This document shows, piece by piece, positions 7,929-25,351 of a stretch of DNA of 64,000 bases. Below the pieces are notes generated by a model. The model saw only the letters and a program-made list of their open reading frames with translations. It was not told the DNA's origin and did no database searches. How positions within the stretch are numbered: position 1 is the first letter of the stretch; each line of letters opens with the position of its first letter. Both the position numbers and the translations under genes were made by a program. The stretch covers positions 1-64,000 of the IMG/VR virus record IMGVR_UViG_3300031998_000057; one strand, 5' to 3'. The DNA comes from a virus (lineage: Duplodnaviria > Caudoviricetes).

Positions 7929-7931
7929 TTG

Positions 7932-9032: not shown

Positions 9033-9063
9033 TCATCTCACCTCTTTTCCTTAACCCATCTTC

Positions 9064-9794: not shown

Positions 9795-9798
9795 GCCA

Positions 9799-10110: not shown

Positions 10111-10309
10111 ACGCCGCGCAACCAGTCATCCCGCCAACCTTCTTCACCCACTTGCACCGAAAGCAGCAGTAACGGCAGATGTAATGCCCGCGCTTCTTCG
10201 GACACTCCCGCACCAATCCCTCGTGCCATTCATTCCCACACGCTTCACAGACCATCCGATGTGCGAAAACCTTCGCCTGCTTCTTCGCCATCCAATAGCC
10301 AACCCCCAT
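10091..10309 (-). CDS. Zn-finger-like hypothetical protein, first gene of the leftward operon
   Basis: CxxC..C..CxxCC..C..C. Confidence 0.55.
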   Translation of the reverse strand: MGVGYWMAKKQAKVFAHRMVCEACGNEWHEGLVRECPKKRGHYICRYCCFRCKWVKKVGGMTGCAAFERKEG

Positions 10310-11222
10310 TTCCCTTGTCCTGTTATTGATTATACTCAGCCTTTTTTACACACCCATAATCTGCCCCACACCTAACGCCCACCCGCTCCCTCGCCCCTAT
10401 ATACCTAAAAGCGCCCTGCCATCAACCCGGCAAGGCGCTCCTTTTCATCTGTAAACATACCCCCATACCCCACCAACTCAAAAAGGATATTTTTTATAAG
10501 CCCTAAAATCGGCTTTACACGCGCTTTGCACTTTTCAGACGCTAAAACCCACGGCAGACAAATCGAAAACGCAGGAGGGCATTGAAAACCACACGACAGA
10601 CGCTGCTGTAATGCAATGCGGCAACGCAAATGCGATTGTGCGGAATGACGCAGGGAATTGAGCGCGGAAATGAGCTGCGAGGTGGCAGGCTATTTTGCGA
10701 ATAATTGAGGATGGAAGCGGAAAGGCAAAAGCCGAATAATTGAGGAGCGGAATGAGCTACGCGCCGGAGGCGCGTCCTGGCGCGGCGGCTAACTGAAAAG
10801 GTGGGGGGCTGTGTTGCGATTATTGCCTATAATCGAAACATGAGCGCGGCAAACGCGGAGCGGGAGCGGGAGCGGCGCGGCTGATGCTCTGCGGCTGAGC
10901 TGGGCGCGGCATGATGCGCGGCGTGGTATCAAGGGAACACCGGCGGTGGGGTGATGGTTTCCGTTTCGCGGGTTTCCGCCTCTTTCGGTTTTCTGGCAAA
11001 AGGGGCTGCGGGTTTTCGCTCTGCTGGCGGATGGGCTGCGGGGCTGCGGCTGCTGATGCGGGTCCTGGCTCGGCTCGTTTTCGCTGGCTTCCGCTGCTTC
11101 ACGGTTGCGGGGCTTCCGCTATAATCCGCGCTATTATAATATCGACGCCGGGAGCATATCGCGCGCGCGCGAGGGCGGAGCGGCTGCGGGGGCTTGGGCG
11201 GGGCTGCGGGCGGGCATAAAGC

Positions 11223-11251
11223 AAGCCCGCCGGGGTTTTATTCCGGCGGGC
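11223..11251 (-). terminator. hairpin after the sigma-like gene
   Basis: AGCCCGCCGG..CCGGCGGGCT inverted repeat. Confidence 0.55.
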
Positions 11252-11278
11252 TGTGGTGGGCTGCTGCGTGGTGGGCGT

Positions 11279-12034
11279 TTATTTGGCGGCGGCGTATCTC
11301 TCGCGGATGGCCTTAATACGCTTGTCGACGGCCTGACGGCTGAGGTTGACGGCGGGCGCAATGCGGCGGGCGCTGTAGCCTGCGCCCAGGGCGGCGACGA
11401 TCCGCAAGTCGATATCGTCACGGCAGGCGCGGGTGATGCTGTCGCGGATGATGGCGGCGGCCTCCGGGCCGGGGGCAATGGGTTCCGCCGTTCCGCGGGC
11501 GCTGATGTCGATTACATCAAGCTCTTGGCCTTCTTCCGTGACGGTGTGCCGCAGGGCGCTGGCGTTCCGCTTCTCCGCTTCCCTGATGGCCTTTGCCGCT
11601 GCGACGATGGCGCGGCTTGTCATTCGGGCCAGGCTCATGTGCTGCTTGTCGGGGTTATCAAAATAGGCGGTATACAGCCTGATATACGCTTCATGAGCGA
11701 CGGCGGCGAGGTCGTCAGCAAGGCGGGCCGGGCAAACCCAGGTGAAAACGGGGGCCGCCGGGACCCGCTGACCGTTTTTAATGATCGTGCGGGCGTCGTC
11801 GATCCTGTACTCATGGCCGGTCATGCGCATGAGATAGTCATACCGCTCGTTTTCCGGCCAGCTTTCGAAAATCTCGCGGGGGCTGCGGCCGTCCTCCTCC
11901 CAGGCGAGGCGGAGCGCGGCGGCCAGGTTGACGCGGTAGCAGTCGCCCGGATGGGCGGCGGTGATCCTGCGGGCGATGGTATGAGCGCGGGCCATAACGC
12001 GGGCGGCGCGGGCGGTGTTGGTAGTCTTTTCCAT
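11279..12034 (-). CDS. phage ECF-like sigma factor
   Basis: Region-2-like DDL..AHEAYIRLY..; C-terminal HTH GYSARRIAPAVNLSRQAVDKRIKAIR; AAAGGAG RBS. Confidence 0.7.
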   Translation of the reverse strand: MEKTTNTARAARVMARAHTIARRITAAHPGDCYRVNLAAALRLAWEEDGRSPREIFESWPENERYDYLMRMTGHEYRIDDARTIIKNGQRVPAAPVFTWVCPARLADDLAAVAHEAYIRLYTAYFDNPDKQHMSLARMTSRAIVAAAKAIREAEKRNASALRHTVTEEGQELDVIDISARGTAEPIAPGPEAAAIIRDSITRACRDDIDLRIVAALGAGYSARRIAPAVNLSRQAVDKRIKAIRERYAAAK

Positions 12035-12100
12035 TTTTTATAACTCCTTTCGATGTGGGCGGCGGCGCTTCTGGCGCTGCCGTATCTTGATTACACTATG

Positions 12101-12129
12101 ATTATACCACGCTATCATTACATATTCAA
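12101..12129 (-). promoter_or_regulatory. consensus sigmaA promoter of the sigma-like gene
   Basis: TTGAAT-17bp-TATAAT with extended TG. Confidence 0.8.
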
Positions 12130-12167
12130 GCATTTTTTCGGCATTTTCCGAAAAAATTTTGCTCGGC

Positions 12168-12200
12168 GGTAGCCAAAACCGTTTTCCCCGGTTTGGTGTA
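12168..12200 (+). promoter_or_regulatory. class I motif GGTAGCC-N16-GTTTGGT
   Basis: Intergenic copy 1. Confidence 0.75.
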
Positions 12201-12267
12201 GGCGAGGACGAAAAACGACGGGCGGCGGCTGCGGCCCGGAAACAAAAAATCGAACGGAGGCAATACA

Positions 12268-12606
12268 ATGAATAAAATCAACGGCGCGGAGCTTATCGAA
12301 AACACAAGCGCGGCGGGCCGGAGGGCGGCGCGGGCTGCGGCGGCTGCGGCTGGCGCGGGCGGCTGGTCCTCTATCTGGGGCGCGTACAAGGAGCCCAGCG
12401 CGGAAAAGGTCCGGGCCTGGCGTGGCCTGGAGGCGCTGGCGGAGGCGCTGAACGCGGACAGCCTGCGGATCACGGCGGCGAACACTTTCAATTTCTCGGC
12501 GCTGATCCGTTTCCGCGTTGACGGTCGGGCGGCTGTCGGCTATATCACGCGGGACCACCGGCGCTTCGCCTGGGCGGAGGATGCGCCCGCGGCGGCGGCG
12601 GCCTGA
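12268..12606 (+). CDS. hypothetical protein
   Basis: GGAGG RBS, follows a class I motif. Confidence 0.7.
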   Translation: MNKINGAELIENTSAAGRRAARAAAAAAGAGGWSSIWGAYKEPSAEKVRAWRGLEALAEALNADSLRITAANTFNFSALIRFRVDGRAAVGYITRDHRRFAWAEDAPAAAAA

Positions 12607-12725
12607 ACAGGCAACGGAGCCCTGGCGGGGATCGGGATTTTTCCCGGTCCCCGTCTTTTTTTATTTGACGGGGCCGGGGCCGCGTGATAAAATATTTGAA
12701 CAGGCGAAAAATTTTTTTCGGCGCT

Positions 12726-12758
12726 GGTAGCCAAAAGCCGCCGCGCCGGTTTGGTGAT
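12726..12758 (+). promoter_or_regulatory. class I motif
   Basis: Copy 2, N16. Confidence 0.75.
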
Positions 12759-12777
12759 TGAAAAGGAGGCTGAACAC

Positions 12778-13056
12778 ATGGCGAAAGCGAGCGCGGCACG
12801 GATCAAGGCCAATCAGCGGTGGGACGCGCGAGCCTATGACAAGGCGCTGCTGCGGCTGCCGAAGGGAGCACTGGAACAGCTTAAAGCGGCGGCGTCTGAG
12901 GAGGGCGAAAGCCTGAACAGATATATTTTGATTGCCCTGGAGCGGCGGAGCGGCTTAAAGCTCACGCTTGACGGGGAGCTGCCTGGGCCGGGGCCGCGCG
13001 GCCCGCGAAAAGACTACAGAACAGCGGCGAAAAAGACCGGGGACGGCGAAAGCTGA
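12778..13056 (+). CDS. ribbon-helix-helix (Arc-like) DNA-binding protein
   Basis: YDKALLRLPKG..LKAAASEEGESLNRYI. Confidence 0.7.
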   Translation: MAKASAARIKANQRWDARAYDKALLRLPKGALEQLKAAASEEGESLNRYILIALERRSGLKLTLDGELPGPGPRGPRKDYRTAAKKTGDGES

Positions 13057-13080
13057 TCCCCGGAAATTTTTTTGTTTCGC

Positions 13081-13113
13081 GGTAGCCAAAACGAAAAACC
13101 CGTGTTTGGTGTA
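13081..13113 (+). promoter_or_regulatory. class I motif
   Basis: Copy 3, N16. Confidence 0.75.
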
Positions 13114-13159
13114 ATCGGGAAAACAAAACCCGATAATAAATTGAAGGGAGCTATAAAAC

Positions 13160-13444
13160 ATGGCAATAACAAACAATATGATTATTGAAAATGCCCGCGC
13201 AAACCTTATTTCCGATGGGCTGCTTGATCCGGCGCATGAAATCCATACTTTCCAGCGTTGGAAAGCGCTGGGCTACAGCGTGAAAAAGGGAGAACACGCG
13301 ATAGCAAAATTCTCGATCTGGAAGTACGGCGAGCGGCGGAAAAAGGCCGAGGACGGCGGCGAGGAGGAGATCGAGACCGGCGGCTGCTTTATGAAAACGA
13401 GCGCGTTCTTTTCGACGGCGCAAGTGGAGCCGCTGAAAGCGTGA
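13160..13444 (+). CDS. ArdC N-terminal-like ssDNA-binding (antirestriction-associated) protein
   Basis: TFQRWKALGYSVKKGE..IW..FF..QVE. Confidence 0.65.
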   Translation: MAITNNMIIENARANLISDGLLDPAHEIHTFQRWKALGYSVKKGEHAIAKFSIWKYGERRKKAEDGGEEEIETGGCFMKTSAFFSTAQVEPLKA

Positions 13445-13453
13445 GACGGAGAC

Positions 13454-13491
13454 GGGGCCGGGGGAGCTTTCCCCTGGCCCTTTATTTTTTT
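13454..13491 (+). terminator. Rho-independent terminator
   Basis: GGGCCGGGGGA-GCTT-TCCCCTGGCCC plus T tract. Confidence 0.75.
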
Positions 13492-13522
13492 GCCCTGACG
13501 CGGGGAAATTTTTTTCGGCGCT

Positions 13523-13555
13523 GGTAGCCGTTTTGAAAATTCCGCGTTTGGTGTA
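13523..13555 (+). promoter_or_regulatory. class I motif
   Basis: Copy 4, N16. Confidence 0.75.
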
Positions 13556-13590
13556 GGTGAAAGCAAACGAAAGAACAGGAGGCAATAACA

Positions 13591-13788
13591 ATGAAGATTG
13601 AACAGACGCAGGCATTCCGTTTAACCGTGGATCACATGGTTAAGCTGGGAAACGATCACAAATTTGACAAAGAGTTTCCATTTTCGGAGTTTTTGTCAAG
13701 GACTAAGACTCTGCGCGGCGCAGAGTTTGCGCGCAAGGCGGCTGCAAAAGCGAACCAACGTTTACGCTGCAAACTGTATGTTGCTTGA
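13591..13788 (+). CDS. hypothetical protein
   Basis: GGAGG RBS. Confidence 0.6.
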   Translation: MKIEQTQAFRLTVDHMVKLGNDHKFDKEFPFSEFLSRTKTLRGAEFARKAAAKANQRLRCKLYVA

Positions 13789-13797
13789 TGCTGGAGA

Positions 13798-13835
13798 CGG
13801 GGCTGGGGGATCATTCCCCAGCCCCTTTATTTTTT
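13798..13835 (+). terminator. Rho-independent terminator
   Basis: GGGGCTGGGGGA..TCCCCAGCCCC plus T tract; homologous to the 13454 terminator. Confidence 0.75.
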
Positions 13836-13928
13836 GCCCTGGCGCGGAAAATATTTTTCGGAACAGCTTAATTTTTACGCTTTCGCTGTTTGGTATAGAC
13901 GAAAGCAAAAACAAGAAGGCAATACACA

Positions 13929-14171
13929 ATGAAAATGTTTGCAAAAGCCGTTGAGGGAAAAGAGTTTATTTACAGCCGTGAAAGCGCTCACCAGGTAAGC
14001 GAGAGAAGCGCAAATATGATTTGCGCGGCGCTGAACGAAAAGCGCTGGGGGCTAAAAGACGGGCAAATCTGGCACGTCTACGATTGCGAATGGTACGAAC
14101 AGGAATACACCGGCGCGGCGTATCAATCTTTTGAACGGCGCAACGGCGGCCTGGTGGAGAGGATAATCTGA
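13929..14171 (+). CDS. hypothetical protein
   Basis: RBS plus ATG. Confidence 0.65.
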   Translation: MKMFAKAVEGKEFIYSRESAHQVSERSANMICAALNEKRWGLKDGQIWHVYDCEWYEQEYTGAAYQSFERRNGGLVERII

Positions 14172-14250
14172 ACACACGGAGCGCGGCGGGCCGGGGCAAT
14201 AATCCCGGCCGGGGCCGCGCCTGAACACAAAACGAACGGAGGAACGAAAA

Positions 14251-14415
14251 ATGAAAAATCTGCTGAGCATGATCGGCTTTGTTGCGTTTCTGTCCCTGCT
14301 GCCCCTGGGCGGCTGGATTGAGAACGACGGCGGCCTGCCTGCGCTGCTGACGGCGGCGGCGGTGATCCTTGTGCTGGCCGTGACGGTCTACGCGGCGAAC
14401 AGGACGAAAAAATAA
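14251..14415 (+). CDS. small two-helix membrane protein (54 aa)
   Basis: MKNLLSMIGFVAFLSLLPLGG..ALLTAAAVILVLAVTVYAANRTKK; GGAGG RBS; not in the ORF track. Confidence 0.6.
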   Translation: MKNLLSMIGFVAFLSLLPLGGWIENDGGLPALLTAAAVILVLAVTVYAANRTKK

Positions 14416-14426
14416 TTTCCCGCGTT

Positions 14427-14459
14427 GGTAGCCAAAGGCGGCCGCGCCGGTTTGGTGTA
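14427..14459 (+). promoter_or_regulatory. class I motif
   Basis: Copy 5, N16. Confidence 0.75.
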
Positions 14460-14498
14460 ATCGGGCGAGGCGATCCCCGCCTGAACACAATACATTGA

Positions 14499-15200
14499 AT
14501 GGAGGAACACAAAATGACGCACGAAAAGAGATACGAGCTTGTCTGTGAAATGCTGAGAGCCTACGACATGGCGAACGGCTACGATGCCGCGGAGCAAGTA
14601 ATCAAGAACGCGAGAGAATGGGCCGGGCATGGTACGCTTCCCTTTTATGGGGCTGCCGCTTCCCTGCTGGTGGAGGCGATGGAGGGCATGAACAAAACAA
14701 GGACTGGAACCGCACAGACCGCCGCACTGAACAGGATTTACAAATCCGCTTGCAGCATAGCAAGGCGGGGCTTTGATGGCGTTTTCCCGTCTGCTGGGCG
14801 CTGGGCGCTCTGCGACGGATACCGCTTTGTGCGCCTGAACGTCAAGCCTGAGAGCTATCCCGAACGGGAGAGTACAATCAACCTGGAGCAGGCGATCCCG
14901 GTGGCGAGCCGCTATTCTGAGACCGTGGAGCTTCCCACCGTGGCGGAAATCAAGGCGCATCTGGCCGACGTAAAATCCCGCTTTGGGCGCAAGTGGCGCA
15001 ACTATTCTGAGTCTCACATCGAGGCGCTTCCCGGCTGGTGGTGCAATCCCGAATACCTGCTGGACATGGTACAGGCGCTTCCCGGCGGAACGGCGCATCT
15101 TCCGAAGAACAGCATTTCCCCGCTCTACTATGAGAGCCCGGACGGGGATGCCCTGCTGCTTCCCTGCCGTCATCCCGTCACGGCGGCGGCTGCCGCCTGA
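14499..15200 (+). CDS. hypothetical protein; C-terminus weakly beta-clamp-like
   Basis: NPEYLLD..P..SPL..G.ALLLPCR. Confidence 0.6.
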   Translation: MEEHKMTHEKRYELVCEMLRAYDMANGYDAAEQVIKNAREWAGHGTLPFYGAAASLLVEAMEGMNKTRTGTAQTAALNRIYKSACSIARRGFDGVFPSAGRWALCDGYRFVRLNVKPESYPERESTINLEQAIPVASRYSETVELPTVAEIKAHLADVKSRFGRKWRNYSESHIEALPGWWCNPEYLLDMVQALPGGTAHLPKNSISPLYYESPDGDALLLPCRHPVTAAAAA

Positions 15201-15242
15201 GAGAACGTACAAGCCGCGCCGGGCGGGTCCCGGCGCGGCTGC

Positions 15243-15267
15243 CCGTCCGAAAATCCAACGGTATAAT
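15243..15267 (+). promoter_or_regulatory. class II motif CCGTCC-N13-TATAAT
   Basis: Intergenic, after a GC hairpin. Confidence 0.65.
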
Positions 15268-15287
15268 TCAGAACAGGAGGAAAAGAA

Positions 15288-15698
15288 ATGTTTGAGAATT
15301 GGCAATGGGTAATCGGCCCTGAAGGGTATCACGGCTTCGCAAAATCAGCGCTGAAGGACGGCGTATGCCCCTATACCGGCAAGACCGCCGCCGACTATGA
15401 GGCAGAGGGCTGCACAATCGTTTCGGAAGCGGAATTTGACCGCATTGCTGCCGAATATGAGCGCAGCTTGACCGATGACTGGAAGGAGATCACGGAGGAA
15501 CAGTACGAGGACGCGCTGAACGTGCTTCCCCCGCTGCAATGGTACGGCGGCGGCTTTTTCTGCATGGAGGCATATTTCAGCACCCTGCACAGCTTTTATC
15601 AAGAGGTGGACGGTAAATACTTCACTTCCCTGCAATCCGTCACGACGCCCCGCGCCGATATTATGAACAACCTTATGAAATGGAGGGAAAGCGCATGA
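15288..15698 (+). CDS. DUF1419-like protein
   Basis: EITEEQY..LNVLPP..W..F..E..GKY. Confidence 0.55.
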   Translation: MFENWQWVIGPEGYHGFAKSALKDGVCPYTGKTAADYEAEGCTIVSEAEFDRIAAEYERSLTDDWKEITEEQYEDALNVLPPLQWYGGGFFCMEAYFSTLHSFYQEVDGKYFTSLQSVTTPRADIMNNLMKWRESA

Positions 15699-15871
15699 GC
15701 GGCAAACGCTTCCGCCTTTGGGCGCTGCTGCAAAGCAATTTGGCCCTGAGTGACAAGATAGATCATGCCCGCGATCCTGAACACAAGGCGCGGCTGCAAC
15801 GGCACTATGACGAGATCGAGGCCGAAATCAAGATGATCCAAAACGTTTTACAGGAGGAGGTAAACACATGA
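15695..15871 (+). CDS. hypothetical protein
   Basis: ATGA-coupled ORF. Confidence 0.5.
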   Translation: MSGKRFRLWALLQSNLALSDKIDHARDPEHKARLQRHYDEIEAEIKMIQNVLQEEVNT

Positions 15872-16249
15872 AAACGATCAACGTCAATCCCCCTGGGGGA
15901 CTCGCAGCGGGAACAGTGGCACAGCGTCGTGAACATCCTGCGGCGCATGGGCGGCGATATGACCGCCGATGGCCGCGCCGGTCTCTGCGACGAGCTTGAC
16001 CGCTATATCGACTATGCCGAGGATATGCGGGAGGAAATCAAGGAACAGCCGGAGCCGGACGGCGCGGAGCAGTGCATGACCGCCGAGGATGCGCTGGCGA
16101 TCATGGAAAAGCACGTCGGCAACTGGCGCGGTTTGGAGCAGAAGGCCGCGCAGAACGGCGACTATCACGCCGCGCAGAGCTACGCGGATATGGCCTATGC
16201 TGGGGCCGCGCTGAAAGACGAGATCGAGCGCGAGCTTTATCACGGCTGA
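15868..16249 (+). CDS. hypothetical protein with an apparent frameshift at CCCCCTGGGGG (15889-15899)
   Basis: RBS and ATG at 15868 are out of frame with the protein-like ORF ending at 16249. Confidence 0.5.
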
Positions 16250-16264
16250 ACAGGAGGCGACCGC

Positions 16265-16435
16265 ATGAGAATAATCAAGGCGAACATGGAAAACGGCGAC
16301 TACATCATCACCCGCATCAACGTAGCGCCGGAAGAGATCGAAAAATACTATATAGGCAAGCCGTACATATACGAGGACCCGAACCGCGGTGAGACCGGGC
16401 GGACGCGCTTTGTGAGCGTTGAGTTTTTAGATTGA
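16265..16435 (+). CDS. small hypothetical protein (56 aa)
   Basis: GGAGG RBS; MRIIKANMENGD.. Confidence 0.55.
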   Translation: MRIIKANMENGDYIITRINVAPEEIEKYYIGKPYIYEDPNRGETGRTRFVSVEFLD

Positions 16436-16451
16436 AGGAGGAACACAAAAA

Positions 16452-16769
16452 ATGACTATTACGAGAGAGATCAACGGCAGCCCCGTCACGTTCGAGCTTT
16501 CGAGCGCCGAGCTTCGCGCCGCCTACTGCGAACAGCAAGCGCAGTTTGACCGTGAGGACGTGACGCTGATCCTGGACGAGTACGCCGACGATGGCGAGTC
16601 CGGGGAACAGGACTTCATCGACTACTACGGAGCGCCGATTGCCAAAGCCCACGAGCTTCTGCCGCAGATAGTCGAAAAATACCGCGATATCCGCGACGAC
16701 GGCGAATGCGCCCTGTCCTGGCGCGAGGCCGTGGACATGGCATTGGAATATTGGCTGAAGGAGGCTTGA
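16452..16769 (+). CDS. acidic hypothetical protein
   Basis: RBS plus ATG. Confidence 0.65.
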   Translation: MTITREINGSPVTFELSSAELRAAYCEQQAQFDREDVTLILDEYADDGESGEQDFIDYYGAPIAKAHELLPQIVEKYRDIRDDGECALSWREAVDMALEYWLKEA

Positions 16770-16776
16770 GAACACG

Positions 16777-16968
16777 ATGCCGCCTTATGAACAGCTTGCC
16801 GCGCAGCTTTGCGGCGCGATCCGAACCTTTTCCGAGCGCCCGGAGGCATTGGATAACTTTGAAAGCTATCTGTCGTACTGCTTCCCCTGCTGGTGGGAGA
16901 AGTGGGTGAACACGCCGGACGGCTTGGCCGCAGAGCTTGAGCACTTCGCAAACATGGAATTTTCGTGA
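16777..16968 (+). CDS. hypothetical protein
   Basis: RBS plus ATG. Confidence 0.6.
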   Translation: MPPYEQLAAQLCGAIRTFSERPEALDNFESYLSYCFPCWWEKWVNTPDGLAAELEHFANMEFS

Positions 16969-16974
16969 ACAGGA

Positions 16975-17007
16975 GGTAGCCAAAACGCCGCATTACAGTT
17001 TGGTGTA
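16975..17007 (+). promoter_or_regulatory. class I motif
   Basis: Copy 6, N16. Confidence 0.75.
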
Positions 17008-17015
17008 TGCGGGGC

Positions 17016-17044
17016 TTGAAACACAGCCCCGCTTATGCTATGAT
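17016..17044 (+). promoter_or_regulatory. sigmaA-type promoter
   Basis: TTGAAA-17bp-TATGAT with TG extension, in tandem with class I copy 6. Confidence 0.6.
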
Positions 17045-17087
17045 ACTTTATAGGACTTTTGAACACATCGAAAGGAGCAAAACACAC

Positions 17088-17315
17088 ATGAACCGCTACA
17101 GTTACAAAGAACTTCGCGCTGCTGCCGTTTCCCCTACGGCCACGCCGGAGGATATAAATGCCTTTGGGGAATGGTTTGAACTCTACGGCCACGAAAACCC
17201 CGACTTCTGGAACGGCGAATATTGGGACGCCGACGACGGCATGAGGCTTTTCCCCGTCTATACTGAGCCGGACGAGTATGGCGATATGGAGATCGTCGGC
17301 TATGAATTTAGATAG
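17088..17315 (+). CDS. acidic hypothetical protein
   Basis: AAAGGAG RBS. Confidence 0.65.
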   Translation: MNRYSYKELRAAAVSPTATPEDINAFGEWFELYGHENPDFWNGEYWDADDGMRLFPVYTEPDEYGDMEIVGYEFR

Positions 17316-17327
17316 GAGGCGCGAAGA

Positions 17328-17666
17328 ATGACAATTTCGGAATTGAAGAGTGAACTTCGGATTGCCCCTGACGATTATTGGGAAGTTATGGAAGCGGAGC
17401 TTCCGCTGCCGGAAACGCTTGCACAATTCGCCGAGGCATGGAATAATCCCGCGCTGAACAGTGAAGGAACTTTTGCAGATAACCTTGCGGACGGCGCTGT
17501 GCAGGACGGAAAGCCCTTTTTCGGAGCCTACACATCGATCACGGTCGATTATGATGACTATGACAAGTATTTTTGCGACGGCTGTGCGCCTAATGAAATC
17601 AGAGACACATTTCCCAGGGCGTTAATTGCAATAGAGCCGCAGAAATCGGAGGAGGCCGCCGAATGA
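17328..17666 (+). CDS. acidic hypothetical protein
   Basis: GGAGG RBS. Confidence 0.65.
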   Translation: MTISELKSELRIAPDDYWEVMEAELPLPETLAQFAEAWNNPALNSEGTFADNLADGAVQDGKPFFGAYTSITVDYDDYDKYFCDGCAPNEIRDTFPRALIAIEPQKSEEAAE

Positions 17667-18070
17667 CACACGAGAACAGTGGTATTATCGACTTCAACGC
17701 CAAGCGCGGCGTCCGGTCGGAGGACTTCGCGGACATCGGCGACTACGCCGCCGCGAAAGCGGAGGAGAACGCTGCCTTTTGCGGCAAGGCGCTGAACAGC
17801 GAAAACCTTGATCGTCTGAACACGATCCGCGACTGCTGCGCGAAAATTGCCGAACTGGACGCGGACGTGCGTTTTATAAATTTCCCGCCGGACAGCAGGG
17901 AGCGCAACGGCATCATGCAGATCAACGTCCCCGGCCTGTATATGGCTTTCGACAAGCGCATTACGCGGCTTTTTTCCCGCATCTTCGCCGAGGCAGACGA
18001 TTTTGGCGTCGTGGAAACGGACGACGGCCTGAACTTCACCTTCGGCGTGAGGGACATTTGGGACGATTAA
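17663..18070 (+). CDS. hypothetical protein
   Basis: ATGA overlap, RBS. Confidence 0.65.
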   Translation: MTHENSGIIDFNAKRGVRSEDFADIGDYAAAKAEENAAFCGKALNSENLDRLNTIRDCCAKIAELDADVRFINFPPDSRERNGIMQINVPGLYMAFDKRITRLFSRIFAEADDFGVVETDDGLNFTFGVRDIWDD

Positions 18071-18085
18071 AAAAAGAACAGACCC

Positions 18086-18118
18086 GGTAGCCGTTTTCGG
18101 AAAAGCGGGTTTGGTGTA
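18086..18118 (+). promoter_or_regulatory. class I motif
   Basis: Copy 7, N16. Confidence 0.75.
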
Positions 18119-18186
18119 TACAGAGGCAAGCGCGAGGCAAACGCCCCGCGCTTTTCTTGTGCCTAAAATTGAAAGGAGAATACACA

Positions 18187-19419
18187 ATGTACTATCAGAT
18201 CAACCGCGAGACTCAAAAGCTGGAGCTTATCTTCGACAAGGCTGAATATCAGGCATTGCCCGACGCGGACAAGCGTGAGATCAAAAGCAATTTCCTTTTC
18301 GCCCGCAGCATCGGCGGCTGGGTGAGCCGCGCAAAGTGGCCGAACACGGGCCGAGCGGAGCGCGTGGCGCAGCGCCTGGGCGCTGAGAACAGGGGCAAGA
18401 CCGGCGAGGCCCTGACCTTTGCCGAGCAGCAGGAGCGCAAGGCGGAACGCGCCGAGGCCCGCGCCGAACGCATGGACGCGAGATCGGACAGGGCCGCTGC
18501 CGAGGGGACGCGCCTGCAAAAGCCCATCGAGGATATGCGCGGCGATATTGCGTTCTTCACGCAGCCGAACATCAACAGCAGCGCGGGCCGCGCCTTTACG
18601 AACAGGCGGAACAGGATGTTTGCCGCCTATGAGCGCGGCTGGGAGGAGTTCAAGAAATCGGAATACTATGCGGAACGCGCTGAGACTGCCCGCCGCACCG
18701 CCGCCGAAGCGAAAATGCCCACCGACAAGGGCTTTTGCGAGCGCCGCATTGCCGAGGCGGAAAAGTCCATTCGGGAACAGAAGAAGCAGATCGACACCTA
18801 CCGCAAGGCCATCGAGCAGACCGAAAAGGGTCTGGAATACGTCGGCGGCCCCGGCGAGTGGTACTGCCATTACACCCCCGACTACACCGACAAGCTCCGC
18901 GAGTGGCTTGAAAACGCCGAGGAGCGCATGGAACAGGCCATGAGCAAGGCCATTTACTACCGCGAGGCCCTTGAAGCCCTGGGCGGCATCCAGTACAGCC
19001 GCGAAAACGTCAAACCCGGCTACGTCGTCCTCGTCGGCTCCCACCTGGGCGAAGTCGATTCCTGCGGCCCGAAGAACATCACCTATAAGGTAACGACCTG
19101 CGGCACGACCTTTTACCTGAAGGCCAGCTACGGTGAAATCACCGAGATCGTCAGTGCCGAGGAGCGCAAGCCTGAACAGCACCCGTTCAAGGTGGGCGAG
19201 GTTTTCGAGCCGATCCTGTGGGACGGCGACCGCTTCACAAAAACCCCCGTGGAGATCGTCAAGGCCACGGAGAAAAGCGTCACGGTTCAGAACAGGAACA
19301 CCGGCGAGAAGTACGTCCGCAAGCCTCAGAAGTACGACGGAGGCCGCAGCGAAGCCGCCGAGTGGGTATTCTATATCGACTCCGACTCCTACCGTTCCCG
19401 CTGCGCCAAACCCGCCTGA
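18187..19419 (+). CDS. DUF3560-like protein
   Basis: ERKAERAEARAER coiled segment, ..AFFTQP..RNRM.. Confidence 0.65.
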   Translation: MYYQINRETQKLELIFDKAEYQALPDADKREIKSNFLFARSIGGWVSRAKWPNTGRAERVAQRLGAENRGKTGEALTFAEQQERKAERAEARAERMDARSDRAAAEGTRLQKPIEDMRGDIAFFTQPNINSSAGRAFTNRRNRMFAAYERGWEEFKKSEYYAERAETARRTAAEAKMPTDKGFCERRIAEAEKSIREQKKQIDTYRKAIEQTEKGLEYVGGPGEWYCHYTPDYTDKLREWLENAEERMEQAMSKAIYYREALEALGGIQYSRENVKPGYVVLVGSHLGEVDSCGPKNITYKVTTCGTTFYLKASYGEITEIVSAEERKPEQHPFKVGEVFEPILWDGDRFTKTPVEIVKATEKSVTVQNRNTGEKYVRKPQKYDGGRSEAAEWVFYIDSDSYRSRCAKPA

Positions 19420-19420
19420 C

Positions 19421-19445
19421 CCGTCCAAAAAAGAAAAATGATAAT
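19421..19445 (+). promoter_or_regulatory. class II motif variant CCGTCC-N13-GATAAT
   Basis: In tandem with class I copy 8. Confidence 0.5.
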
Positions 19446-19458
19446 AAATTGCTGGAGC

Positions 19459-19491
19459 GGTAGCCATATCCCGCTCCCGCGGTTTGGTAAC
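19459..19491 (+). promoter_or_regulatory. class I motif
   Basis: Copy 8, N16. Confidence 0.75.
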
Positions 19492-19531
19492 AGTGACCGC
19501 GCAAGCGGAACACATTGAAAGGAGTTACAGC

Positions 19532-19744
19532 ATGAACACGACGACAAAACTGACCTACATCGGCATGGATTCCTGGTCGCGCCCCGTCTACAAGGACGAA
19601 GCCGGGACCCTTTGGAAAGACACAGACCCCCGTCGAGACCGCGCTCCCGACCTTTGCTCCGCTATGTTCAACGCCTTCGACGGCGAGCCGAACAATCCTT
19701 TTCACGGCATCCCCGAATTTATCCCCGAACGGATCACATGGTAA
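19532..19744 (+). CDS. hypothetical protein
   Basis: AAAGGAG RBS; GMDSWSRPVY..FDGEP. Confidence 0.65.
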   Translation: MNTTTKLTYIGMDSWSRPVYKDEAGTLWKDTDPRRDRAPDLCSAMFNAFDGEPNNPFHGIPEFIPERITW

Positions 19745-19761
19745 ATTGAAAGGAGAACACA

Positions 19762-20133
19762 ATGAGCACCATCACTTTTACAGCGAAGCCCCTCACGAAG
19801 CCGGAGGGCATGACGATCAAGGCCGAGCTTGCCTGGGCCTATTTCGATTTCAATAACGGCGGTTGGCTGGCCGCGAAGATGGGCGACGATTCCATCGTCA
19901 TCACCGACGAATCCGCCGATTTTTTCAACGGGCAGACTTTCCCCGACGAGGACGCCTTTGCCGAGTGGTTGGAACAGGACGCCGCCATGCAGCTTGACGA
20001 TCATCCCTATGAGTTTTTGTCAGACAGCGGCGCGATCCTGCCCGCCCTGCTGACCGAGGCCGTCCAGCGTGAAATCCTGAACGCCATCAATCAAATCGAC
20101 GACACGAGAAAGGAGAACACCCCCGATGCTTAA
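19762..20133 (+). CDS. acidic hypothetical protein
   Basis: AAAGGAG RBS. Confidence 0.65.
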   Translation: MSTITFTAKPLTKPEGMTIKAELAWAYFDFNNGGWLAAKMGDDSIVITDESADFFNGQTFPDEDAFAEWLEQDAAMQLDDHPYEFLSDSGAILPALLTEAVQREILNAINQIDDTRKENTPDA

Positions 20134-20674
20134 CGACAACACGCTCCACGACGAAATCGCCTTTCAGGGCAAAGCCCTCACGGTGGACACCTGCTTCCTG
20201 GGCGAATACATGAACAATCCCTATGAGACCATGGCCCTGCTGCCCGGCGGCAAAGAGATCGAGTGCGTCCGCTCCGCCACGGAGGAGGACGCCCGCCGCG
20301 TCCACGCCATCATGCTCAAAAAGTACAGGGAACAGGCCGCGCCCCTCACGGGGAAGTATTTGAAGCTGAAGCTGGACCTGCTGGCCGCCTATGCCGAGAC
20401 GGAACACATCGAACAGACCGAGGACGGCGGCACCTGCAACTTTGATGCGCCGGTCCTGCACCTGAACCGCTGGGACGGGAACAAGATCAAACAGGCGGCA
20501 AAGGAGGCGGGCGGCAGCGCTTTCAAATGGACATGGGGCAGCCGCGTCATGGGCTGGGTATTCTCCCCGCGCAGCTCCGGCCAGGGCAACCGCCGCAGCC
20601 GCCGCGCCGAGGCCATCAGTGCCGCTCTCAAAGCCAAAGGCTACAACACCGGTATGTATTACGCTATGGACTGA
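20126..20674 (+). CDS. hypothetical protein
   Basis: DGGTCNFD..GQGNRR..AE. Confidence 0.65.
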   Translation: MLNDNTLHDEIAFQGKALTVDTCFLGEYMNNPYETMALLPGGKEIECVRSATEEDARRVHAIMLKKYREQAAPLTGKYLKLKLDLLAAYAETEHIEQTEDGGTCNFDAPVLHLNRWDGNKIKQAAKEAGGSAFKWTWGSRVMGWVFSPRSSGQGNRRSRRAEAISAALKAKGYNTGMYYAMD

Positions 20675-20695
20675 ACATAAAAAAGCCGAACGCTC

Positions 20696-20728
20696 GGTAG
20701 CCATTCCCCCTATCGGGCGTTTGGTATA
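20696..20728 (+). promoter_or_regulatory. class I motif
   Basis: Copy 9, N16. Confidence 0.75.
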
Positions 20729-20778
20729 ACTGAACGCGGCGGCGACTGCCGCACATACATTGAAAGGAGTAAAACATA

Positions 20779-21405
20779 ATGAACAGAACCATCAAACTGA
20801 GCGACAAGCTCACGGGCGCTCTCGAAGCCCACGACATCTACGTTACGTCCGCTGACGAATACAACGGCGGCATCGACGTAGAATTGGAATGGTACAGCCC
20901 CGCAGGAGAGGATTTTGTTTTCACCTTCCACTTTGACGGCTCCGCTTCCGATTTCGTTGACAACTTCCGCAGCTACGCGGAGGACTTCGACCCCGACGAA
21001 CACGCCGAAATGTGGGTTGAACACCGCGGCAAAAATGGCTGCCCGAACTCTATCCGTGACCTGATCGACGACGCGGACGCCATCAATGACTTTCTGAACA
21101 GCGTCGCCCACGATCTGATTGACGCATTGGAGCGTGGCGAGCTGTCCAACGCCTACCTGCTGACCGAGGAACAGATCAGGGACGATTGGGAAGCCGCGCT
21201 CGAAAGCGATATGGACTACAGCGAGATCGCCCAGGCTATCGAATGGGGCTTCACCCGCGAGGACATTATCACGCTCATGGAGCTGCACCGTGAGAACAAG
21301 CACCGCCGCAAGATCGAGGACCTTTTGACCGACTGCAACTATCACACGGAATGTAAAGCCTGGTCCGCGGGCGATTACACGTTCCGCGACGTATGGGAGG
21401 AGTGA
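20779..21405 (+). CDS. acidic hypothetical protein
   Basis: AAAGGAG RBS, 208 aa. Confidence 0.7.
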   Translation: MNRTIKLSDKLTGALEAHDIYVTSADEYNGGIDVELEWYSPAGEDFVFTFHFDGSASDFVDNFRSYAEDFDPDEHAEMWVEHRGKNGCPNSIRDLIDDADAINDFLNSVAHDLIDALERGELSNAYLLTEEQIRDDWEAALESDMDYSEIAQAIEWGFTREDIITLMELHRENKHRRKIEDLLTDCNYHTECKAWSAGDYTFRDVWEE

Positions 21406-21435
21406 CCGCTGGGGCGGCCTTTGGCCGCCCGTCCC

Positions 21436-21460
21436 CCGTCCGAAAAATCACTGCTATAAT
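21436..21460 (+). promoter_or_regulatory. class II motif CCGTCC-N13-TATAAT
   Basis: After hairpin GGGCGGCC-TTT-GGCCGCCC. Confidence 0.65.
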
Positions 21461-21493
21461 CAAAACACAAACACATGAAAGGAGCTATAACCA

Positions 21494-21883
21494 ATGCCAT
21501 TCACGCAAGATGAGCTTTTCATTCTTTCCGACGCGCTTCTTCTCACCATCAGCGAAAACAGCGAAGCCATGAAGCATATCACGAGCCAGGACGCAATCGA
21601 AGCGCTGAAAAAATACCTGACCGTCCTGCGCGACCTCAACAGCAAGGTTTGTTCTCTCAGCGAGTCTCAGCTTGCCGCCGACTTCCGTGCGCAGGAACAG
21701 CCCCGCAAAACGCCCCGCGTCGTCATTCACGTTGAGGACGGCATGGTGCAGAACGTTTACGCCGATGCCGACGTGGAAGTGGACGTCTGCGATTTGGACG
21801 ATGACACCCCGGATGGTTTTGACAGCAGCCGCACACGGCTCCACGCGGTTGTTACCTGTGGCGTGTACAAGCCCGTGTATTGA
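21494..21883 (+). CDS. hypothetical protein
   Basis: AAAGGAG RBS. Confidence 0.65.
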   Translation: MPFTQDELFILSDALLLTISENSEAMKHITSQDAIEALKKYLTVLRDLNSKVCSLSESQLAADFRAQEQPRKTPRVVIHVEDGMVQNVYADADVEVDVCDLDDDTPDGFDSSRTRLHAVVTCGVYKPVY

Positions 21884-21902
21884 GAAAGGATGAACAGACC
21901 GC

Positions 21903-22292
21903 ATGAACACCTATATGGAAGTCTATGAGCTTTTTAGCTCGGACGGTCTGCGTCCCTGCTGCGGTGAAACTCCGCTTTTTAAGGCGTTCGATTTTTCGAG
22001 CGGCACACTGTTTGCCGTAGAATGCCGCAAAAACGGCCACATCCACAACACGGGGCTTCACAAGACCCGCGAGGCCGCCGTCAAACTCTGGAACAGCGCG
22101 AAAGAAACGACCCACGGACTGCTTCTCCCGACGACGGCTCTTGTGACCGAGGACGATTACGGCGTTACCCGCTGTGGAGCCTGCGGCGGCGAAATTCTCT
22201 GCGGAGACACCGGCGATATGCCGAACTTTTGCCCCGCCTGCGGGAAAGAATTGGACTATGCACTTTACGAACAGGAGGAACAGCCCACATGA
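21903..22292 (+). CDS. Lar-like / Zn-ribbon protein
   Basis: LRPCCG..EAAVKLWN; CGACG..NFCPACG. Confidence 0.6.
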   Translation: MNTYMEVYELFSSDGLRPCCGETPLFKAFDFSSGTLFAVECRKNGHIHNTGLHKTREAAVKLWNSAKETTHGLLLPTTALVTEDDYGVTRCGACGGEILCGDTGDMPNFCPACGKELDYALYEQEEQPT

Positions 22293-22507
22293 TCGACACG
22301 AACACCACCTACGGCGTATCTTTTCGCTGCTATTTCCCCGATGATGGCGGCACGGCGACGCGCTACAACAGCCATTATCAGTGTCTCCCACTCGACGAGC
22401 TGCCGACATGGATCGAGGCGTACCGCTTCACGCATCCGAACTGCCTCTCCGTGACGGCAAAGGTCTGGTTCAGCGACTGCGCCGCAAAGCGCGGCGGCGA
22501 GGACTGA
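22289..22507 (+). CDS. hypothetical protein
   Basis: GGAGG RBS, ATGA overlap. Confidence 0.55.
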   Translation: MIDTNTTYGVSFRCYFPDDGGTATRYNSHYQCLPLDELPTWIEAYRFTHPNCLSVTAKVWFSDCAAKRGGED

Positions 22508-22532
22508 ACACGCACATAGAAAGGAGAACAGC

Positions 22533-22835
22533 ATGGAACAGAACAGGCTTTACACAAGCACGATGTACAAGGCCGTTTCCCCGAAAGATGACTGCGGCCT
22601 TGAAAGCCCCCGTGACACCCTCGGGGAGCTGGTGGACATGATCTCCCGCTTAGAGAGCCGCGCCCAGGAGCAGGGCTATCCCCCGCAGGAATGGCTGATC
22701 GTGCGCGTCCGCACGAACACGATCTTCGATGGGGGCCGCTTCCACTACCGCAGTACGATTGAGGAAGCCGTCGCTCTCTACGGCAAGGACGGCAAGCTGC
22801 GCTATTTGAACGGCGAGGAATGGAAAATTGGCTGA
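22533..22835 (+). CDS. hypothetical protein
   Basis: AAAGGAG RBS. Confidence 0.6.
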   Translation: MEQNRLYTSTMYKAVSPKDDCGLESPRDTLGELVDMISRLESRAQEQGYPPQEWLIVRVRTNTIFDGGRFHYRSTIEEAVALYGKDGKLRYLNGEEWKIG

Positions 22836-22854
22836 ACAAAACCGAAAATTCCCC

Positions 22855-22883
22855 TTGCAATATCACTTGATCCGTGGTATACT
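22855..22883 (+). promoter_or_regulatory. sigmaA-type promoter
   Basis: TTGCAA-17bp-TATACT with TG extension. Confidence 0.65.
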
Positions 22884-23062
22884 TTTCATAGTGAGTGTTG
22901 CAGCACTCGCTTACAAAGCAGTATCGCGGACACGGTACGGCATTATTATCGCCTTTTATGCCCCTGCAAGGGCATTTTAGGGCTATGCTTTGCATAGCAG
23001 CAACCGCCGCCTCATGTGTCCGCATGGGGCGGCGTGTCTTTTATGCAAGGGAGGCAAACAAG

Positions 23063-24031
23063 ATGCCATTTATCCGTGTACCGCAAGACAAAGACTTCTC
23101 AATCGTTCCGAACAGCATTTACCGCGACAATCGGCTAAATCTTAGGGACATTGGTTTGCTGACCTATCTCCTGCATCTCCCGAATGATTGGGATTTTTCA
23201 ATCAAAGGCTTGGAGAGCATCATCCCTAACGATGGGAGGGACGGCATAGCCGCCAGTTTGAAGAGGATTGAGAACGCCGGGTATCTTCGCCGTGAGCAGA
23301 TGCGAAACAAGGGCGGCACTCTGGGCGAGGTCATCTGGACGATTTCAAACGCTCCTTTACCGAAAACGGATTTTCCGTATACGGCTAATCCGAATACGGC
23401 TGAACCGAATACGGTTAATCCGACACAACATAGAACTAACGGAACAAATAACGAAATTAACCGAGAACAAAAGGACGGCGTATTGCGCTCCGACGAGCGG
23501 AGCGACGACGCGGCCCATGATTTGAGTCCCATTGTAGTTTCTGAGAGCAAGAAGCGCGGGAAGAAGCGGAACAACTCGTTCACGCCTATCGGGTATACGG
23601 AGCAGCTTTTCGGCAAGGACTTTGCCGCCGATGCGCTTTCCTTTGTGAATGACTATGTGGAGAAATACTACCCGCAGTACCGTAAAGAACCGCATCCCGT
23701 AGTAGACGATGAAGAAAAAGCCGAATGTGCTTTCAGGGTCCTTTGCTGTGCCGCAGAGCTTGGCGTGAGAACGGCTTTTGTTGAGCAGAGGCTATATCAG
23801 GCTGCCATGCGCGAAGCAACGTACAAGCCGCTCATAAGCAAGGTCACAAGCCCCCGTTCCCTTGGCTATTGGCTTATCAATGACGGTGATATGCAATCCG
23901 ACAAACTGAACAGCACCCGCTACAGCTTGGAGATTGGGCCACCGCCGATGGGCAAGCCTATCAACTCGATCACCGTGGCGGCATGGAAAGAAAACACACA
24001 GCCGCAAAGCACCCGATACAGACCACAATAA
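23063..24031 (+). CDS. winged-HTH replication-initiator-like protein
   Basis: FSIVPNSIYRD..LS/LN..GLLTYLL.LP.DW.F..L..DG..I..L..AGYL.R. Confidence 0.65.
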   Translation: MPFIRVPQDKDFSIVPNSIYRDNRLNLRDIGLLTYLLHLPNDWDFSIKGLESIIPNDGRDGIAASLKRIENAGYLRREQMRNKGGTLGEVIWTISNAPLPKTDFPYTANPNTAEPNTVNPTQHRTNGTNNEINREQKDGVLRSDERSDDAAHDLSPIVVSESKKRGKKRNNSFTPIGYTEQLFGKDFAADALSFVNDYVEKYYPQYRKEPHPVVDDEEKAECAFRVLCCAAELGVRTAFVEQRLYQAAMREATYKPLISKVTSPRSLGYWLINDGDMQSDKLNSTRYSLEIGPPPMGKPINSITVAAWKENTQPQSTRYRPQ

Positions 24032-24232
24032 GCAAAGCGCACAACTATCAGTAATTATTAGTCACTGACAGTTACCATCACCATCAGCACCAGCATCAGC
24101 ATACCCATCAGCAACCACACCCCCAAAAGCAACAGCAAACCCAGCGCCACCGCCAACCGAAAGAGGATAGGCAAGGGGATGCAAGGGGGAAGGAAAGGGG
24201 AAAGCAAGCGCCGACGCCTTTTTTCGGCGGTT

Positions 24233-24266
24233 GGTAGCCGTTTCCGCATCTTCCCCGTTTGGTATA
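24233..24266 (+). promoter_or_regulatory. class I motif (N17) overlapping a TG-TATAAT
   Basis: Copy 10, upstream of the recombinase. Confidence 0.7.
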
Positions 24267-24286: not shown

Positions 24287-25351
24287 ATGAACACCATCGA
24301 CCGTTACGACGCTCTGCGCGACCGTTGGCTCCGCATGGCGAAGCGAAACAACCTCACCGGCACCACGCTCCGCGCTTATGAGTCCGTCACGGGCCTGCTG
24401 CGGGACTTCTTGCAATCCCGCATGGAACAGGGTATAATCAAGGAAGAACAGGAATACGTCAGCTTCGACGATATTCAAGCGTGGATCGACGCGATGACCG
24501 ATGCGGGGAACAAGGTCAGCAGCATCAAGCAGCGCCTTGTCACGGCGAACCAGTTTTTCACCTTCGCCACGAAGCCCTACGTCCCCGCAGAACTGCGTTA
24601 TGAGCTGTCCCCCGTATCTCCCGACTTCTATCCGAAAGTCCCCACAGAGAACATCCCGGAAGCCCTGACGGACGAGGAAATCACCGAGCTTTGGAAGTAT
24701 GAGCGGAAGTACAAGGCCACGGACGCAGGCTTCGCCCGTAACTATGCCATCGTCGCCCTCATCCTCACCACGGGTCTGCGGAACAAGGAAGTGCTCGATC
24801 TCAACCTGGACAGCATCGACCTTGCCAACGGCGAGGTTTGGGTACACAACGGCAAGGGCCGCAAGGACCGCGTCGTGGATATGGACTCCGGCGGTCTCTG
24901 CGCCGCCGCCCTGGAAAACTATCTCCTGCACGGAGACAGACCGCAGAACATCCCAAACTCCGCTCCCCTCTTCGGCACGACAGCGGAACACAGCTTTGGC
25001 AAGCCTCAGACCACCGAGGGCGCGGAGAAATGGCACAGAGGCACGGGCGCATGGCTGTCCGCCCTGATCGAACGCCACGTTTTCAATCAGACGGGACGGC
25101 ACGACTGCCGCAGCCATGACCTCCGGCACACCTACGCCCGCTTGATGCTGAACAGCACGGGCAACCTTGCCGAGCTGCAAAGCTCCCTTGGACATTCCGA
25201 TCCCAAGATTTCCGAGCGCTACTCTGGTAGACTGCTTCAGCGTCGGAGGAGGGAACAGACCCGCGCCGTCCTCGCCGCCCGCGACGAAGCCGCCGCCCGA
25301 CTCCGCGCCAGGAACAGGCAGGAACAGACCGTCATCGAACTTTACGCTTAA
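24287..25351 (+). CDS. tyrosine recombinase / integrase
   Basis: TGLR, GKGRKDR, HDLRH, LGH, Y catalytic set. Confidence 0.92.
   Translation: MNTIDRYDALRDRWLRMAKRNNLTGTTLRAYESVTGLLRDFLQSRMEQGIIKEEQEYVSFDDIQAWIDAMTDAGNKVSSIKQRLVTANQFFTFATKPYVPAELRYELSPVSPDFYPKVPTENIPEALTDEEITELWKYERKYKATDAGFARNYAIVALILTTGLRNKEVLDLNLDSIDLANGEVWVHNGKGRKDRVVDMDSGGLCAAALENYLLHGDRPQNIPNSAPLFGTTAEHSFGKPQTTEGAEKWHRGTGAWLSALIERHVFNQTGRHDCRSHDLRHTYARLMLNSTGNLAELQSSLGHSDPKISERYSGRLLQRRRREQTRAVLAARDEAAARLRARNRQEQTVIELYA

Follow-up and report, generated by a model that had tools for sequence, protein, structure and literature searches.

Which form of RNA polymerase transcribes the long plus-strand gene block of this phage DNA, and does the phage supply the promoter specificity itself? 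The window, that is, the whole stretch of DNA analysed here, covers 64 kb from the start of a 72,531-bp IMG/VR virus record with an estimated completeness of 92%; the same DNA is present in the sequencing runs of one bovine gut metagenome sample, and no RNA run was found to contain it. Genes lie on the minus strand from position 1 to 12,034 and again from about 26.3 kb onward, where a tape measure protein, a BspA-type leucine-rich repeat tail protein and other structural proteins are encoded; a plus-strand block of 14 kb extends from 12.1 to 26.4 kb. The minus-strand gene at 11279–12034, encoding the 251-residue protein P0001, is assigned by Pfam, profile comparison and predicted fold as a phage sigma factor gene, and it faces ten copies of a bipartite, promoter-like sequence. 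The gene and the array quite probably constitute a self-contained phage sigma/promoter module, in which P0001 directs host core RNA polymerase to ten promoters; this reading is based on motif statistics, the sigma-like sequence and fold, conserved synteny and covariation.

The motif GGTAGCC-N16/17-GTTTGGT has exactly ten matches in the window (nine with N16, one with N17), all on the plus strand between 12168 and 24263. Each is intergenic and is followed, 23–113 nt downstream, by a Shine–Dalgarno (SD) sequence and a start codon. The chance expectation in 100 shuffles was 0.00, and the rest of the 72,531-bp record contains no further copies. Relaxing the pattern to three or fewer mismatches added only three matches, each with three mismatches and within chance expectation, and none with one or two; because this tolerant search adds only chance-level matches, the promoter set is sharply defined. 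GGTAGCC occurs 13 times in the window, and the occurrences at 36341, 39003 and 41292 lack the second half. The first-pass annotation of this DNA had listed the same ten intergenic plus-strand copies, each ahead of a ribosome-binding site and a gene, and the same three lone GGTAGCC words; the pattern search reproduces both lists exactly.

Copy 1 (12168–12197, as all copies on the plus strand) precedes the gene at 12268–12606; copy 2 (12726–12755) an Arc-like gene at 12778–13056; copy 3 (13081–13110) an ArdC-N-like gene at 13160–13444; copy 4 (13523–13552) the gene at 13591–13788; and copy 5 (14427–14456) the gene at 14514–15200. Further downstream, copy 6 (16975–17004) precedes the gene at 17088–17315, copy 7 (18086–18115) a DUF3560 gene at 18187–19419, copy 8 (19459–19488) the gene at 19532–19744, copy 9 (20696–20725) the gene at 20779–21405 and copy 10, with the N17 spacer (24233–24263), a tyrosine integrase gene at 24287–25351. 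Conservation is restricted to the two boxes, the spacers varying among copies, and the box centres are 23 bp apart, the same distance as in TTGACA-17-TATAAT. Several copies sit after strong intrinsic terminators. An A/T-rich tract (12130–12167) separates copy 1 from the divergent promoter of the sigma gene, and nearly every copy has an equivalent run about 38–47 nt ahead of the final base of its −10 box, with a positional A+T fraction of 0.85–0.96 over 26 aligned sites from seven loci. The run is placed where an UP element would sit and appears to be UP-element-like.

P0001 consists of an N-terminal helical hairpin (residues ~1–48), a sigma2 domain (~50–157), a disordered linker containing a conserved A-E-x-I-A-P-x-P-E motif and a sigma4 domain (~188–251). 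Pfam PF07638 (Sigma70_ECF, for extracytoplasmic function) matches residues 110–248 with 27.2 bits against a cut-off of 21.1. The PHROG sigma families gave no match, the sole PHROG match being a generic helix–turn–helix (HTH) family at E 0.013. P0001 belongs to a family of full-length homologues, for which an exhaustive profile search returned 821 representatives at E ≤ 1e-3, roughly 200 clusters at E ≤ 1e-10 and 79 representatives at E ≤ 1e-30; this last set stands for clusters formed at 50% identity, and most of it comes from metagenomes of animal guts. Among the aligned family members, Sigma70_ECF is matched in 43 of 81 and Sigma70_r4_2 in 26 of 81. The family profile aligns to solved sigma factors, including Fusobacterium sigma-H (7e-7), CnrH (5e-5), sigmaE (9e-5) and AlgU (1e-4); the matches span both domains (residues 90–240; 93–238 for CnrH), and residues 90–160 align to region 2 of CnrH, sigmaE and AlgU.

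The AlphaFold2 model of P0001 has a predicted local distance difference test (pLDDT) score of 81.5, with residues 156–186 forming a low-confidence linker. Almost all of its top Foldseek neighbours are sigma factors, at weak E-values of 0.03–0.1. In VIA-align comparisons, residues 184–251 superimpose on the sigma4 domains of many sigmas (Z 8–9, root mean square deviation 1.6–3 Å), residues 49–251 on two-domain sigmas (Z 8.7–8.8) and residues 51–155 on T4 gp55 (Z 6.5); the hairpin at residues 1–48 is an addition that has no sigma counterpart in the structural comparison. The Atlas neighbours are viral clusters, some of them automatically named sigma factors. As in group 4 sigmas, P0001 has a sigma2 domain with regions 2.1–2.4, a short sigma2–sigma4 linker and a sigma4 domain with an HTH, and it lacks sigma1.1 and sigma3. 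The first-pass annotation had described an open reading frame (ORF) with sigma region-2-like and region-4 HTH motifs, and both domains indeed prove sigma-like by Pfam, profile and AlphaFold2 fold. Judged by sequence and model, P0001 is a two-domain sigma-70-family protein of the ECF type, the term ‘ECF-like’ applying at the level of Pfam PF07638 only.

A tblastn search of P0001 against 50,697 phage records (INPHARED) yielded no match at E 1e-3, and an IMG/VR search with the single protein yielded no relatives; with the family alignment it returned one, L019. A first scan of GTDB found no homologues and a second found two distant ones, in metagenome-assembled genomes labelled Eubacteriales and Staphylococcaceae (both Bacillota); these labels are the only clue to the host. 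Scanning IMG/VR for promoters gave two single matches to the exact window type and 45 single matches to the L011 type, the latter number being about the chance level. Loci that seemed to have several copies proved to consist of a coding tandem repeat of 27 bp, and a homologue is encoded in none of them.

Contigs were fetched for homologues of P0001, and arrays were compared at 12 related phage loci. At each of the 12, an array of small genes runs divergently from the homologous sigma gene and contains 1–15 copies of a bipartite promoter whose register is that of the window's, in every case on the opposite strand to that gene. The −35 box GGTTTCC with an N16 spacer occurs at six loci, joined to −10 boxes GATTGGT in L011 (five copies) and L015 (one copy), GATTACT in L013 (two), GGCGTTA in L020 (three), GGCATCA in L023 (seven) and GGTTGGT in L074 (15). 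The window's own −10 box, GTTTGGT, recurs in L009 behind GGTTAAT-N15 (seven copies) and in L014 behind GGT[AT]GTC-N16 (three copies). The remaining promoters are GGTTACA-N16-GTTAGGT in L019 (two copies), GGTTGTG with a spacer of about 16 and GGCTGGT in L075 (six), GGTTGTA with a spacer of about 15 and TGACG(N)TATA in L076 (eight), and GCATAA-N15-GGGACTAC in L016 (five).

Some further loci add less. L072 has one candidate site only (GCTTAAT, n = 1), consistent with the prediction; no recognisable array was seen in the short upstream sequence present in L017/L018, which encode P0015; and L073 is too short for array comparison. The distant short-form subfamily L021/L024 has a sigma gene that is not divergent from an array. 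L016 is the most distant array-bearing relative, and its five array-strand sites, GCATAA-N15-GGGACTAC, are followed by TTAAT; this promoter presumably resembles the Bacillus forespore sigmaF/G-type promoters, which is a lead only.

The boxes change together with the domains that would read them. The sigma4 helix S-[HR]-T-A-[IV]-N-K-R is paired with GGTTTCC in six sigmas, whose overall identity falls to 38% (38–45% in some pairs) and whose −10 boxes differ. The helix x-Q-A-V-x-K-R is paired with GGT[AT]G[CT]N in four sigmas, that of the window included; S-A-P-A-V-T goes with TTAAT, and two further helices with two further boxes. The proteins P0002 and P0004 separate the two halves of the promoter: their sigma2 domains are 86% identical and the −10 box is shared, whereas the sigma4 domains are only 42% identical and the −35 boxes differ. 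The −35 boxes of L023, whose sigma shares about 35% identity with P0001, and of L074 were each predicted from the helix alone and recorded before the motif search, and a blind bipartite k-mer search agreed with both. P0025 and P0029, whose helices are nearest to that of the window, have the boxes GGTTGTG and GGTTGTA, both in the window's class. At the level of sequence comparison, the −35 box changes in step with the recognition helix of sigma4, and phages with a conserved sigma2 have the −10 box in common. Direct readout by the sigma protein would predict such linked shifts of a box and its matching domain. The pairing of this sigma with these promoters, put forward in the first-pass annotation, thus gains the support of gene and motif co-occurrence and of domain-wise covariation in 12 related loci, with two predictions borne out.

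The second box itself is best read as the −10 element, with a start about 5–7 nt downstream. In window copies 2 and 10 the SD begins 8 and 9 nt, respectively, past the second box, and at sites in L009, L011, L023 and L074 the distance likewise falls within 7–9 nt. Because the SD begins so close, the start site would have to lie within about 6 nt of the second box, and a start within that distance would make this box the −10 element itself. In addition, 7 of the 10 window copies have G at the would-be −11 position of a shifted hexamer, where sigmaA requires A.

According to the proposed mechanism, host sigmaA–RNA polymerase would first transcribe the monocistronic gene 11279–12034 (minus strand) from a near-consensus extended −10 promoter. 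P0001 would then bind host core RNA polymerase and steer it to the ten promoters on the opposite strand, sigma4 reading GGTAGCC as the −35 element and sigma2 reading GTTTGGT, plus the following RTA, as the −10 element. The upstream A/T tract would act as an UP element for the alpha C-terminal domain (alpha-CTD), transcription would start about 5–7 nt past GTTTGGT, and the regulon would be an array of mostly single-gene or short cassettes. Core polymerase binding, the assignment of domains to boxes, the start site, the timing and the UP function are the steps that we infer.

The sequence around the sigma gene is consistent with the first of these steps. Its sigmaA-type promoter, TTGAAT-17-TATAAT with a TG extension, was found by promoter scan at 12101–12129 (minus strand, read from 12129 to 12101), as the first-pass annotation had claimed, and the window and seven of the nine relatives scanned have a comparable near-consensus sigmaA promoter 60–130 nt ahead of the sigma gene. 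The earlier proposal that host sigmaA makes the phage sigma first fits this distribution. A hairpin with a T-rich tail follows the gene (11210–11256, minus strand; read from the sequence and not listed by the consensus scanner); it is a probable terminator and would render the sigma gene monocistronic. No anti-sigma-like neighbour was found beside the gene, which appears monocistronic, and none of the ten promoter copies is on its strand, so that it has no own-type promoter upstream and does not follow an autoregulated pattern.

Several points weigh against P0001 as the reader of these promoters. Its similarity to known sigmas is remote, the NCBIfam TIGR02937 score being 15.8 against a cut-off of 42.9 and the Foldseek E-values being those given above. 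The covariation is drawn from related phages, which limits the independence of the cases. A TATAAG-like sequence comes after the second box in many relatives and resembles an extended −10 sigmaA promoter, and some partial sigmaA contribution at the array promoters is conceivable. Taken to its full extent, this last point leads to an unlikely alternative, in which host sigmaA would read an extended −10-like TGG-TATAAx overlapping the second box, P0001 being a sigma-shaped class II activator or a MotA-like appropriator that sits on the upstream box. Window copies 9 and 10, like relatives, do have TATAA[GTC] after the second box, giving TGnTATAAx, and with the −10 element so assigned the upstream box would fall at −41 to −35, a class II activator position. 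The G at the would-be −11 in most window copies speaks against it, as does the absence of T at −7 at most sites, and a start 7 nt beyond the TATAAx hexamer would land inside or past the SD. Moreover, the second box varies among relatives along with sigma2 divergence, versions without TG occurring in L076, L023, L013 and L020, and P0001 possesses a sigma2 domain that matches regions 2.1–2.4.

A different reader, either a second phage protein or a host alternative sigma, is considerably less probable still; P0001 would then have another role, for example that of a repressor at the CI position. The phage does encode a candidate, a 238-residue fusion of sigma4 and alpha-CTD (6534–7250, minus strand), with a strong region 4 (E 9e-19; helix T-R-E-R-I-R-Q, of the canonical group-1 type) and an alpha-CTD (E 3e-21) that would suit the UP-like A/T tract of the promoters. 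Homologues 36–41% identical are present in L017 and in the phage of L019 (L022), and L075 has a protein with the same two Pfam domains. At least three relatives carry both the fusion and the sigma gene, and each of these fusion genes is close to the sigma gene, with an SNF2 helicase and/or a methylase downstream. The helix core T-R-E-R-[IV]-R-Q, however, is constant in three phages; for two of these the −35 boxes are known and differ (GGTAGCC and GGTTACA), and this invariance of the helix led to the rejection of the fusion as promoter reader. Nor was a fusion homologue identified in the sequenced flanks of several array-bearing relatives; the proteins of L009, L011 and L014 that had been supposed homologues by gene order are unrelated. 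A host sigma cannot account for −35 boxes that change with the helix of the phage protein, and the motif is directional and non-palindromic, unlike a repressor operator. The fusion might instead mimic or titrate contacts at host promoters.

That the repeats are primarily recombination or cassette-boundary sequences, or replication or packaging signals, is highly improbable: a half-site promoter–leader module shared almost unchanged with L009 ahead of unrelated ORFs does suggest cassette exchange at such modules, but conservation is confined to the two boxes and excludes the 16-nt spacers, the copies have a fixed place before an SD and start in a single orientation, several follow terminators, and covariation links the boxes to the sigma domains. 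Any part that the repeats play in shuffling could be a by-product of promoter function.

With P0001 as the promoter reader, the module can be set beside known systems. The bacterial ECF (group 4) sigmas sigmaE, CnrH, AlgU and SigH likewise have sigma2 and sigma4 without sigma3, and they share with P0001 highly specific bipartite promoters with 16–17 nt spacing and profile and fold similarity over both domains. A co-encoded anti-sigma and autoregulation are typical, though not universal, for ECF sigmas, and their promoters carry an AAC / CGT signature. P0001 differs in its extra N-terminal hairpin, in having no adjacent anti-sigma gene, in being phage-borne and sigmaA-driven and in not being autoregulated, and the window promoter lacks the AAC / CGT signature.

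In function, gp47 of Salmonella phage 7-11 comes closest: it is a phage sigma that acts on host core RNA polymerase at eight promoters with the consensus GTAAtg-16-aCTA; transcription starts 6–9 nt from the promoter sequence, and early genes, including those that make the sigma, use host sigma70 (PMC8948821). A phage sigma, bipartite promoters and a 16-nt separation are common to both systems. In contrast to the window, 7-11 is a lytic enterobacterial podovirus whose gp47 has another consensus and late structural genes as its regulon; the window has an accessory-gene array plus integrase, divergent from the sigma gene, in an integrase-carrying phage, and tblastn detects no homology. The sigma factor gp36 of phiEco32 needs the co-factor gp79, and its promoters have a single −10-type element without a −35 (PMC12276001, PMC8948821). 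It resembles P0001 as a phage sigma of remote ECF-like fold, and its chain (PDB 9m7y) is among the structural matches of the P0001 model; the window differs in its bipartite promoters, and no gp79-like partner was identified in it. Bacillus phage SPO1 gp28 and gp33/34 and the sporulation-like phage sigmas show that host RNA polymerase is redirected in Bacillota, where SPO1-type sigmas drive middle and late genes or interfere with host sporulation genes (PMC9429907). P0001 belongs to a different family with a different promoter consensus and matches no PHROG sigma family. By tblastn and PHROG, no homology was detectable between P0001 and the described phage sigma or late-activator families (phiEco32 gp36, 7-11 gp47, SPO1 gp28/gp34, RinA/ArpU), and the literature searched contained no description of the P0001 family or its promoters. 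By these comparisons, the phage sigma/promoter pairs form a family not described before, within the established class of phage sigmas that have promoters of their own.

What the array controls can be read from the genes behind it. The window regulon includes the Arc-like, ArdC-N-like and DUF3560 proteins, many ORFans and the tyrosine integrase. The first-pass annotation had supposed that the sigma fires the whole cassette array including the recombinase; ten copies, with the integrase among their targets, bear this out in part, and some genes of the block have sigmaA-like or CCGTCC-N13-TATAAT promoters of their own. One of the block genes, resembling a replication initiator (23063–24031), stands behind a terminator and a sigmaA-like promoter. 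CCGTCC-N13-TATAAT has three copies against 0.01 expected, at 9064–9088 (minus strand), 15243–15267 (plus) and 21436–21460 (plus), the latter two inside the sigma-dependent block. SigmaA-like promoters with a TG extension occur on the plus strand just upstream of copy 2 (12665–12693) and just downstream of copy 6 (17016–17044), and both polymerase forms may therefore transcribe the Arc-like gene and the one at 17088.

The arrays of relatives contain genes for ArdC-N, Lar, LPD25, Bro-N, Fic, DUF6927, an AcrIC5-like protein and integrases, and the DUF3560 gene of L009 is likewise preceded by a promoter of L009's own type. Among L076 1145–1576 (minus strand), L011 3254–3691 (minus) and L011 12391–12768 (plus) are an AcrIC5-like (anti-CRISPR), a Lar-like and an Acb2/Tad1-hairpin-like gene; the AcrIC5-like and Lar-like genes are within sigma-controlled arrays and the Acb2/Tad1-hairpin-like gene is on the sigma-gene side in L011. 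Gene content suggests that the array is an accessory or anti-defence island.

The first-pass annotation noted a half site at 13888; it is real and is a promoter of the type used by L009, GCTTAAT-N15-GTTTGGT (13866–13894, plus strand), ahead of the gene at 13929–14171. This promoter and its 5′-leader (window 13830–13930) are nearly identical to L009 8780–8880 (minus strand), even though the sigmas of the window and L009 differ in −35 specificity. Because the modules are nearly identical while the ORFs behind them are unrelated, they point to cassette exchange at the leader, and cassettes seem to be exchanged together with, or behind, promoter–leader modules.

There is about an even chance that the family is widespread, undescribed and in effect a naturally occurring collection of orthogonal sigma/promoter pairs governed by a simple modular code, each sigma commanding a rapidly shuffling accessory or anti-defence array plus integrase. 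The code would read x-T-A-[IV]-N-K-R for GGTTTCC, x-Q-A-V-x-K-R for GGT[AT]G[CT]N and S-A-P-A-x-T for TTAAT, the sigma2 type specifying the −10 box. If so, the cassette island (ArdC-N, Lar, AcrIC5, DUF3560 and others) would be insulated from host transcriptional control, and the arrangement suggests that an accessory or anti-defence island has been placed under a private polymerase specificity. To our knowledge, phage-encoded sigmas have been described in no more than a few model lytic phages; the present proteins would add a new sigma family from uncultured gut phages of Bacillota-like hosts. The regulon would be readable straight from the sequence, with 10–15 near-identical promoters per genome, and would offer an annotation rule for transcription units in such metagenomic phage genomes. 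A −35 specificity that is diversified and predictable from a single helix would provide a testable protein–DNA recognition code, and naturally orthogonal pairs would be of interest to synthetic biology.

Other features of the record lie outside the module. Downstream of the sigma gene, about 850 bp (10340–11200) are apparently non-coding, contain many short CAGCC/GCGGAAGC-type repeats and terminate at the TATAAT box preceding the next minus-strand operon; a similar purine-rich repetitive stretch adjoins the sigma gene in L017/L018. An origin, an attP site or a transcript leader are possible functions of this stretch. No other conserved bipartite motif was found on the minus strand of the record after masking the tandem repeat at ~66.0–66.4 kb. 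This 24-bp repeat, of ~12–14 copies (G000 ~66,060–66,353, past the window), had dominated the first bipartite k-mer search and probably encodes a repeat. ARAGORN reports only two tRNAs in the window, tRNA-Ser (8440–8528) and tRNA-Leu (8705–8782); Rfam adds a third at 7932–8018 (minus strand) with a score of 52 bits.

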